Part shown: piece by piece, positions 30,037 to 32,026 of the stretch
Layout: each line of letters starts with the position of its first letter
Numbering within the stretch: position 1 is the first letter of the stretch
Source of the DNA: a virus
Lineage: Duplodnaviria > Heunggongvirae > Uroviricota > Caudoviricetes
Virus record (IMG/VR): IMGVR_UViG_2531839129_000021
Reading direction: 5' to 3' (one strand)
DNA length: 39,463 nt
Made by a program: the position numbers and the translations under genes
The notes under the pieces: generated by a model
The model's database searches: none
What the model saw: only the letters and a program-made list of their open reading frames with translations
Told to the model about the DNA's origin: nothing

Positions 30037-32026
30037 ATGAACGCTGAAACTATTAAAGATTTCCTCGTCTCGCTTGGCTTCAGTGTGGATGATGCAGGAG
30101 CGAAAAAGTTCGGTTCTGTCCTCGCCGGTACAACTGCAAATGTCATCAAAATGGGACTGGCCGTTGAAGGAGCTGCGCTGTCCGTGGTGGCCTTCACGGC
30201 TAAGATCGCCTCCGGCCTGGATAATCTTTACTGGGCGTCACAGCGCACCGGCGCGACAGTCCAGGGAATTCAGTCTATTGGCTATGCGGTTTCGCAGGTT
30301 GGCGGCAGCGTGGACGCTGCGCGCGGGTCACTGGAGAGCCTTGCCCGTTTTATCCGTAATAACCCCGGGGCGGAGGGATTTCTGAATCGTCTGGGGGTAC
30401 AGACCCGTGACGCCAGCGGTAACATGCGCGACATGGCCGCTATCTTTACGGGCGTCGGCCAGAAGCTCAGCAGCATGCCGTATTACCGGGCTAACCAGTA
30501 TGCGCAGATGCTGGGCATTGACGAAAATACCCTTATGGCGATGCGCCGGGGTGTGGGGGGGGGGCTCCGGGCAGTACAGCGCAATGGCGAAAGCTATCGG
30601 CTTCAATGCTGACGAGGCGGCCAGAAGCTCCAACAAATTCATGACCTCCCTGCGCGAGTTCGGCGCGATGGCAGGCATGGCCCGTGACAAAATCGGCTCT
30701 AATCTTGCGGGTGGGCTTGCGGGTTCGCTGGACCCCCTGCGCCGCCATATCCTGGACAACTTCCCTCGTATCGAGCAGACCCTGACGAAAGCCATAAAAG
30801 GCATTCTGGCGATCGGAGACATCATCGGGCGGCTGTTCTTCAGGCTAATTGAGGGAACATCCAGCCTTATCACCTGGTGGCAATCGCTGGATAAGCAAAC
30901 GCGGGAGCTCATCTCGCTGTTTGGCGCGCTGACGATTGCGCTGCGCATTCTGAACAGTACGTTCTGGATGTCGCCGATTGGTCTCATTACCGCGCTGGCG
31001 GCGGGGATTGCCCTTCTGTGGGAGGACTATCAGACCTGGAAGGAAGGCGGCGACAGCCTGATTGACTGGGGCAAGTGGAAGCCGGAGGTCGATGCCGCGC
31101 TGAAGATGGTTCGTGACCTGAAAGGGTCTGTTAATGAACTGGCGAAAGCGCTGGCGAAACTGCTCAATATTGACCCAAAATCATGGTCCCTGAAGTGGGA
31201 TTTCAGCAACTTCATCGACCAGATGGGCGAATTCAGCAAAATGCTGAACATGATCGCCGACCTGCTCAACGCTATCAAAGATGGCCGCTGGGCTGATGCC
31301 GTCATCATCGGCAAACAGATACTTAATCAGGGCAGCGAAAATCCGTCAGCGATGCCGATGGTTACAGACAGCGCTAACAGTACTGCCGACTGGATTAAAG
31401 AGCACTGGGGATTCGATCCCCGCAGTGTGGGCCGGACGGTACGCGGCTGGTTTGGTGATGATGAGCCGGAACAATATGCACAGGCTACGAAACGAGGAGA
31501 ACGGAATAACAATCCGGGAAACCTTAATTTTGCTGGTCAGGCAGGGGCTTCTCTTGAACGCCCGGGCGGGCGATTTGCCAGATTTGAAACTGCTTTTGAT
31601 GGATTACGGGCTCTTGCTCGTCAGTTAATGCTGTACGCCGGACGGGGAATAAACAGTGTGGAGAAAATTATCTCTACTTGGGCACCTGCGTCTGATAATA
31701 ACAACACAACTGCGTATATCAGGGCTGTATCGCAACGACTGGGAGTGGATCCCCGGGCTGCCCTGAATATGAGCGATCCGCAAACCATGTCAGCATTGAT
31801 GAGCAGCATTATCCAGCATGAGAATGGAAGAAATATCTATTCTCGAGAGCTGATTAATAAGGCTGCCGTGGCGGGAATTAGTGGCAAAATGACAGAGGTT
31901 AACCAGCAAAATACCTACCACATTTACGGTGGTGGAGATCCGCACGCTGTCGGTAATGAGGTTGCACGTCGGCAACAGTCTGCAAATGCTCAGGTCATGC
32001 GAAGTAATCAGGTGAGGGTGGGTTAG
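30037..32026 (+). pseudogene. Tail tape measure protein gene, reading frame broken by one extra G in a 10-G homopolymer (30555-30564); true mutation or sequencing error
   Basis: ATG 30037 with GGAGAGAGGA RBS; upstream frame stops at 30612 while the downstream frame (30407 ORF) runs to 32026; removing one G fuses them into a 662-codon ORF (1989 nt). Confidence 0.6.

Follow-up and report, generated by a model that had tools for sequence, protein, structure and literature searches.

Does a run of ten G residues that interrupts a phage tail gene reflect a sequencing error, a genuine inactivating mutation, or a slippage-prone element that turns expression on and off? This question arises in a prophage sequence of 39,463 nucleotides (herein called the window), for which a first-pass annotation had listed all three possibilities after noting that the tape measure gene changes frame exactly at such a run. 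The sequence, its open reading frames (ORFs), and an alignment with relatives agree that the break lies at this site. The tract comprises exactly ten G, and the single-base indel seen in the alignment falls within the run.

Specifically, the tape measure ORF in frame 1 starts with the ATG at 30037 and yields a protein of 191 amino acids that reads ...RRGVGGG before entering the out-of-frame tail given in Table 1, and frame 2 is open downstream of the tract. Exactly this 191-aa product occurs on at least 13 public contigs. The two frames end where the first-pass annotation had placed them, at 30612 and 32026, respectively. Likewise, its proposal that nine G would fuse the two parts is borne out when one G is deleted in silico, which produces a 1989-nt ORF of 662 codons with no interrupting stop. 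The addition of two G yields an ORF of 663 codons. The start at 30037 and the length of 1989 nt are those of the single coding sequence (CDS) annotated in E. coli strains E41, A16 and H10407 and in phage vB_EcoM-689R2. The 3′ part contains hydrophobic segments and a C-terminal region that is similar to peptidoglycan hydrolase.

Table 1. Features of the tape measure locus and its flanking tail genes, with positions in the window
Feature	Position	Strand
Tail sheath, DUF3383/E217 gp31-like	27807-28952	+
Tail tube	28963-29403	+
Tail assembly chaperone, Pfam Phage_TAC_15, immediately 5′ of the tape measure	29407..29859	+
Slippery run GGGAAATTTTTTG (29802-14), inside the chaperone gene; -1 frame open through the 'DUF6889' ORF, overlapping the tape measure start	29802..30047	+
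Tape measure 5′ fragment: 173 native codons, Gly-Gly-Gly, 15-residue out-of-frame tail LRAVQRNGESYRLQC, stop; 191 aa	30037..30612	+
G10 homopolymer, frameshift site; in-frame G9 plus one G, with G9 derived from ancestral GGGGGGGTT	30555..30564	+
Tape measure 3′ part, +1 frame; S177-G662 of the intact protein, plus stop	30566..32026	+
Dit-like baseplate protein, baseplate plug (Pam3_gp18) and hub-like protein; directly downstream, all intact	32026..33979	+

The G10 tract is the sole run of at least 10 bases in the window, where 0.08 such runs are expected per dinucleotide-shuffled window, and at least one such run occurs in 7 of 100 shuffles. In about 300 kb of related prophage DNA, runs of at least 8 G are confined to the tape measure tract site. 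The only other long homopolymer in the window is a C8 at 8974-8981 (G8 on the minus strand). This run was considered as a second homopolymer lesion and rejected, as it falls within a spurious N-terminal extension of the lambda-like N antiterminator ORF, about 60 nt before the true start of that gene (MDAQTRRRERR...), and disrupts nothing.

That the interrupted gene encodes the tape measure protein, as first annotated, is confirmed by the 9-G reconstruction, whose residues 1-662 match PHROG 2276, 'tail length tape measure protein', over the full length (E=7e-281). It is the PHROGs comparison that settles the identity of the gene, as Pfam alone gives a weak match to PhageMin_Tail (18.9 bits) that falls below the cut-off of 33.2. 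Residues from about 442 to 649 of the reconstructed protein are similar to phage endolysins and transglycosylases, with PDB matches to 7q47 (endolysin) and 9vvp (Gp29), and RefSeq names the intact homologue either 'lytic transglycosylase' or 'hypothetical protein'.

Gene order leads to the same identification. The genes are arranged as sheath, tube, Phage_TAC_15 chaperone, DUF6889, tape measure, Dit-like, baseplate plug and hub, and thus the broken gene sits where a tape measure gene is expected, between a chaperone with a -1 extension and the baseplate and hub genes. The sheath and tube genes (27807..29403) are part of the context that identifies it as the tape measure. This order matches that of Salmonella phage SEN34 (Brunovirus), in which the homologue is annotated as the tape measure protein. 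Indeed, SEN34 gp16 and the 662-aa 'lytic transglycosylase' CDS of E. coli prophages (e.g. WP_057696565.1, strain E41) are the same gene at the same position as that of the window, with DNA identities of 88% to SEN34 (first 1438 nt) and 99.6% to E41. In SEN34 and E41 the ORF is continuous and the G run is interrupted, in contrast to the G10 tract and frameshift of the window. Tape measures of the PHROG 2276 / SEN34 gp16 type form one continuous ORF, and since this gene is split at G10, it is a frameshifted member (pseudogene) of that family. It should be annotated as a frameshifted tape measure pseudogene, and not as two hypothetical proteins.

A second frameshift, of a different kind, appears to operate just upstream. 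An ORF of 54 amino acids (29883-30047) is annotated separately as a 'DUF6889 family protein'. Because the -1 frame is open from the slippery run GGGAAATTTTTTG through this ORF, DUF6889 is most likely a G/GT-type programmed -1 frameshift extension of the chaperone, like the 'T' part of lambda gpGT, rather than an independent protein.

The prophage is otherwise complete, with the other structural genes having the same lengths as in the intact E41 relative. Its left end, with integrase and excisionase, adjoins the host gene ybhC (the lambda attachment region). The integration genes are followed by a lambda-like early region (exo, bet, gam, kil, cIII, N, repressor, cII, O, P and nin genes) and then by lysis genes and terminase. 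The prophage is a mosaic, in which a lambda-like integration and early region is joined to a morphogenesis module like those of SEN34/Brunovirus myoviruses. The E41 relative occupies a different site (the tRNA-Thr / proA region) and has a different integrase.

How did such a tract arise? Of 5,426 complete E. coli genomes searched, 202 carry the 81-nt tract segment. None of these 202 has the 10-G version, and all of the 60 matches listed are one base shorter. The best 40 full-length matches span 1989 nt, and the relatives checked annotate one CDS of this length. The common allele is GTG GGG GGG TTC, encoding Val-Gly-Gly-Phe (herein G7TT). The G run is also interrupted in SEN34 (TTA GGG GGA TTC) and in vB_EcoM-689R2 (GTG GGG CAG TTC), and the Phe at the tract is retained in distant homologues (GQFSAQ, NGFTAD). 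No related intact phage with two ORFs at this position was seen, with SEN34, vB_EcoM-689R2, E41, A16 and H10407 all carrying a single CDS. Nine uninterrupted G (GGC, encoding F176G) occur in only one of the 202 complete genomes, that of strain A16.

Between 29405 and about 30730, E41 (G7TT) and all G8 and G10 alleles share one haplotype and differ only in the TT-to-GG change and in the length of the tract, and the error-corrected 9-G protein differs from the E41 protein only at F176G. This identity of the flanks shows that TT-to-GG (F176G) on an E41-type haplotype made the 9-G run. In other words, two adjacent T-to-G changes joined seven G into nine. Pattern scans for runs of at least 8 G with the tract flanks found none in GTDB representative genomes and none in JGI metagenomes. 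A scan of IMG/VR that also accepted G7TT returned seven G7TT contigs and one 10-G contig, which is 99.97% identical to the window and probably comes from the same clone.

The distribution of tract lengths was examined further by exact-sequence look-ups of the proteins in a collection of 15 billion proteins. The E41-type G7TT protein is present in 128 contigs. In-frame G9 proteins total about 55 contigs, including 48 with the E41-type F176G backbone (P0141), four with an R524W variant (P0142) and two with an L010-type mosaic backbone (P0019). The 191-aa product of G10 is found in 8-13 contigs and the 201-aa product of G8 in two. The products of G7, G11, G12 and G13 are absent from the collection, as are the control products of one-base changes to the ancestral allele (G6TT or G8TT). 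Thus, among related prophages G7TT is the commonest allele and G8 and G10 are sporadic, and for the tract itself in-frame G9 is the commonest state by far.

Each of three backbones occurs both in and out of frame. The first, of E41 type with F176G, carries G9 (P0141), G10 (the P0299917 clone, to which the window is assigned below) and G8 (L023, from ERR1790147, with E41-like downstream genes). The second, with R524W, carries G9 (P0142) and G8 (L024, from ERR14047990), and the third, of L010 type, carries G9 (P0019) and G10 (L010 and L014). Accordingly, there have been at least four independent events of plus or minus one base. L010 (SRR33896477, four samples) and L014 (SRR33880946) represent a different mosaic prophage that is 97-98% identical to the window overall and near-identical from 28900 to 30730. 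Recombination, instead of independent slippage, could account for a 10-G allele that is shared by two mosaic backbones.

Compared with G7TT, the G9 lineage is enriched in frameshifts (Fisher p=2e-8 for 16 out-of-frame contigs; p=0.003 for 5 out-of-frame lineages). The lineage figure is the safer of the two because contigs do not represent independent samples: a single clone accounts for 8-9 of the 10-G contigs, and the L010 and L014 samples may share one study. This locus provides a natural example in which two substitutions, by extending a G run from seven to nine, create a mutational hot spot that repeatedly disables an essential phage gene, with at least four independent events versus none on the commoner ancestral allele. 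It illustrates a rapid route of prophage decay and why coding sequences avoid homopolymers.

A further prophage, in GCA_002511205.1 (L025), which is 99.84% identical, combines the 8-G frame with a GTG-to-GGG change, reading GGT GGG GGG GGG GCT at 10499-10542. The T of the Val codon has become G, such that the run is again ten G long in the 8-G frame. This prophage also has a nearby P-to-L change, and the T-to-G difference beside the run is either a real change or a G-context error.

A homology search also revealed many other truncated N-terminal fragments of the tape measure family with various cut points (e.g. P0062, P0063, P0100, P0113 and P0138), which sit in long contigs or in complete chromosomes from taxa that include E. 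coli, Klebsiella and Salmonella. Two fragments from JGI metagenomes (P0057 and P0060) go out of frame near this same RRG(V/W)G site. In this family, prophages seem commonly to decay through loss of the tape measure gene.

We favor, with a probability of roughly 80%, the reading that the tenth G is a real +1 insertion made by replication slippage at a newly hypermutable tract, and that it leaves a prophage defective in tail formation but able to revert at low frequency. The ancestral GTG GGG GGG TTC became GTG GGG GGG GGC (F176G), joining seven G into nine. On reaching nine G, the mononucleotide tract would have become unstable through slipped-strand mispairing, and in the P0299917 clone of enterotoxigenic E. 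coli (ETEC) it gained its tenth G, probably by replication slippage. Translation exits the tape measure frame after residue 176 and stops 15 codons later, such that the protein lacks the 486 downstream residues, including the cell-wall hydrolase-like C-terminal region.

Long-tailed phages need the tape measure to assemble their tails, the length of which it also determines. Because no tail forms in such phages when the tape measure is missing, the prophage should be tail-defective, and although otherwise complete it would produce heads that lack functional tails. The gpH/gpG/gpGT system of lambda is summarized elsewhere (PMC5009743). Loss of one G (or gain of two) would restore the gene, and therefore rare revertant cells, a small fraction of the population, could release infectious phage. 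We infer that the defect is leaky at the population level, and that it is not a regulated switch. Tools for prophage completeness that score this prophage as intact would overestimate the output of infectious phage.

Among the possibilities raised by the first-pass annotation, a genuine inactivating mutation, at a slippage-prone tract, is thus the one we prefer, given that ten G recur in sibling isolates and in a reassembly (see below) and that tract lengths of 8, 9 and 10 are seen on backbones that do not otherwise differ. It is an ordinary inactivating mutation, and probably a reversible one. The event is of a known kind, with no new mechanism and no evidence for programmed recoding or selected phase variation.

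If the tract changes length so readily, then might it serve the phage as a switch? Simple-sequence contingency loci, which change by slipped-strand mispairing at homopolymeric tracts, are established in Neisseria, Haemophilus, Campylobacter and Bordetella. They are not known to be a common regulatory device in E. coli. As at such loci, a G tract of at least about 8 bases lies within a CDS and differs by one base among close relatives, with lengths of 8, 9 and 10 toggling the frame on near-identical prophage backbones. Unlike them, this tract is recent and rare, replacing a Phe that is conserved in distant homologues, and it is not maintained across the lineage, where G7TT dominates (128 contigs versus about 55 for G9) and the complete genomes and the GTDB and JGI scans are nearly or entirely devoid of long G runs at this site. 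Moreover, the in-frame state predominates, all 8-9 sibling colonies share the same tract length at the level of assembly consensus, and no known phenotype is tied to the tract. The tail-off state also offers no apparent benefit, because the lysis genes remain. The first-pass suggestion of a slippage-prone tract with on/off expression thus holds only loosely, for the recurrent changes in length and the possible reversion, but nothing points to a switch that is selected or regulated.

Alternatively, full-length protein might be made from the 10-G allele itself, by slippage of RNA polymerase or by +1 slippage of the ribosome. Only a few copies of the tape measure are needed per tail, all of the out-of-frame alleles examined keep the 486 downstream codons fully open, and, judging from the sequence, tRNA-Gly could re-pair perfectly after a +1 shift within the run to give exactly the G9 protein. 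The known bacterial examples of transcriptional slippage involve runs of A or T. Programmed recoding is expected to be conserved, but here the homologues are in frame, and the shifted arrangement is confined to sporadic derived alleles. In addition, the 1.3 kb around the tract does not differ from the in-frame haplotype that is ancestral to it, which argues that no stimulatory signal has co-evolved with the tract. We also considered a prfB-like +1 site, at which the G run would serve as an internal Shine-Dalgarno sequence, and rejected it because the next codon, CUC, cannot re-pair at +1.

Two precedents are instructive. G-string mutants of herpes simplex thymidine kinase, with one G more or fewer in a run of 7 G, are compensated by low-level frameshifting (PMC5009743). 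There, as here, a viral gene is frameshifted by one G in a G run, and a little full-length product could suffice for the window gene as well. However, compensation in the herpesvirus gene has been demonstrated and involves eukaryotic translation, whereas the indel in the window has no selective agent favoring it. In Citrobacter rodentium, the poly-A interruption of tssM1 is relieved by transcriptional slippage, which restores the full-length product (PMC4256274). Again, a gene for a contractile-tail-like machine is interrupted at a homopolymer, but the tssM1 tract is A11, is conserved, and has two products that are both required, whereas the tract in the window is G10 and is not conserved. Taken as a whole, we consider it unlikely that the tract is a selected contingency locus toggling the production of infectious particles or that the 10-G allele is recoded by either form of slippage. 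We likewise see only a slight chance that, in a temperate phage of E. coli, the G9/G10/G8 tract forms a true contingency switch or passes a trickle of full-length protein by slippage. With a switch, lysogens would toggle between tail-competent and tail-less states, and in either case the 10-G allele would persist and spread rather than being a dead end.

The preferred reading, a real insertion, depends on the tenth G being present in the strain. Could the strain truly carry nine G, with the tenth a homopolymer miscall of sequencing or assembly? Long homopolymers are a classic site of length errors, and library PCR can stutter at G10. Regardless, Illumina HiSeq2000 data at more than 200x coverage rarely yield a miscounted homopolymer in the consensus. 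Over its right half, the window shows 100% identity to contig APYN01000049.1 (L009, GCA_000357305.2) from an E. coli P0299917.x isolate. The P0299917 isolates are ETEC colonies from one patient in Dhaka that were sequenced separately by Illumina HiSeq2000 at >200x and assembled with Celera Assembler, and nine of the ten isolates are clonal (PMC4462620).

Tract lengths were read from consensus assemblies, and all of the P0299917 sibling assemblies fetched have ten G. These comprise five NCBI assemblies (L009 and four more), with the Logan reassembly of SRR446943 in agreement, and the exact 191-aa product is called in the five NCBI assemblies and in Logan reassemblies. The Logan contig carrying the 10-G allele of this clone was seen in nine samples. 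At the level of assembly consensus, no tract length other than ten G on the window backbone traces to the P0299917 clone. Ten G are present as well in an unrelated lineage that was sequenced years later (SRR33896477, SRR33880946). A homopolymer artefact should be poorly reproducible, but the ten G recur across libraries, assemblers and lineages. At least five separately sequenced siblings and an independent reassembly, made with a different assembler, give the same count, which makes a read error unlikely.

The errors that the assembly does contain are of another type. At 21645, 24843, 30734 and 37053, the window reads C but most or all of the siblings and relatives read A, and sibling Celera assemblies carry private T-to-G singletons. 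Judging from the sequence comparisons, these four C residues are probable consensus errors of the Illumina T-to-G / A-to-C type. The C at 30734, common to the window, L012 and L019, places Pro at residue 233 of the tape measure, where others have Thr. The Thr233 version is found in both NCBI and Logan assemblies, but the Pro version is found only at NCBI, and P233 is probably false. In the protein collection, a 9-G protein with the P233 backbone of the window is absent, and it is the Thr-corrected backbone that accounts for the 48 contigs. A second related prophage was considered as the source of the 4-12 SNPs between clonal siblings and rejected, since the differences are private T-to-G or A-to-C singletons that resemble errors.

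At least four probable consensus errors in the window assembly, together with the abundance of in-frame G9 on the corrected backbone, lend some weight to a miscall. Nevertheless, errors of homopolymer length would be expected to bring other such indels with them, and the errors here are substitutions only. The G run is the only frameshifting coding indel relative to E41 over about 30 kb, and the Logan reassembly (L011), which lacks the substitution errors, still has ten G. On the basis of these consensus assemblies, the 10-G call appears to be real. A sequencing or assembly artefact, the first of the options listed by the first-pass annotation, is accordingly disfavored, and we regard it as quite unlikely.

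Finally, it is highly improbable that the tape measure is naturally split into 191-aa and ~480-aa products that are both made and work together: gene callers do predict a downstream ORF of 480 or 461 amino acids from an internal ATG, but every relative examined has one continuous CDS, the split occurs only on the derived G8 and G10 alleles, there is no convincing Shine-Dalgarno sequence within the 5-12 nt before the first ATG of the 3′ part (30584), and a tape measure acts as a single extended chain in determining tail length. Translational coupling at the stop codon upstream was rejected as well, as the ATG at 30606-08 does not lie in the required frame and no Shine-Dalgarno sequence precedes the ATG at 30584.

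Two additional features downstream of the tape measure locus also vary or might vary among these prophages. Identity to relatives collapses at 33983-34640, a variable cargo slot inside the baseplate module. In the window, this slot encodes a protein of 113 amino acids whose N-terminus resembles a signal peptide (MRGIIFLLAVFSACSAWA...) and a DUF4282 protein of 79 amino acids, whereas it holds a DUF2335 protein in L010 and L014 and ORFs of 256 and 131 amino acids in E41 and L023.

Farther downstream, 21-nt inverted repeats that are 95% complementary lie 1.8 kb apart, one at 37990-38010 and the other beyond the end of the window (L007 17954-17974 / 19781-19801). They flank the 3′ end of the tail-fibre gene, opposed tail-fibre-assembly genes, and a neighboring resolvase/invertase gene (L007 19863-20417). 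Its sequence suggests an invertible host-range segment of the Gin/Cin/Pin type; if so, this prophage would carry a genuine DNA switch there.
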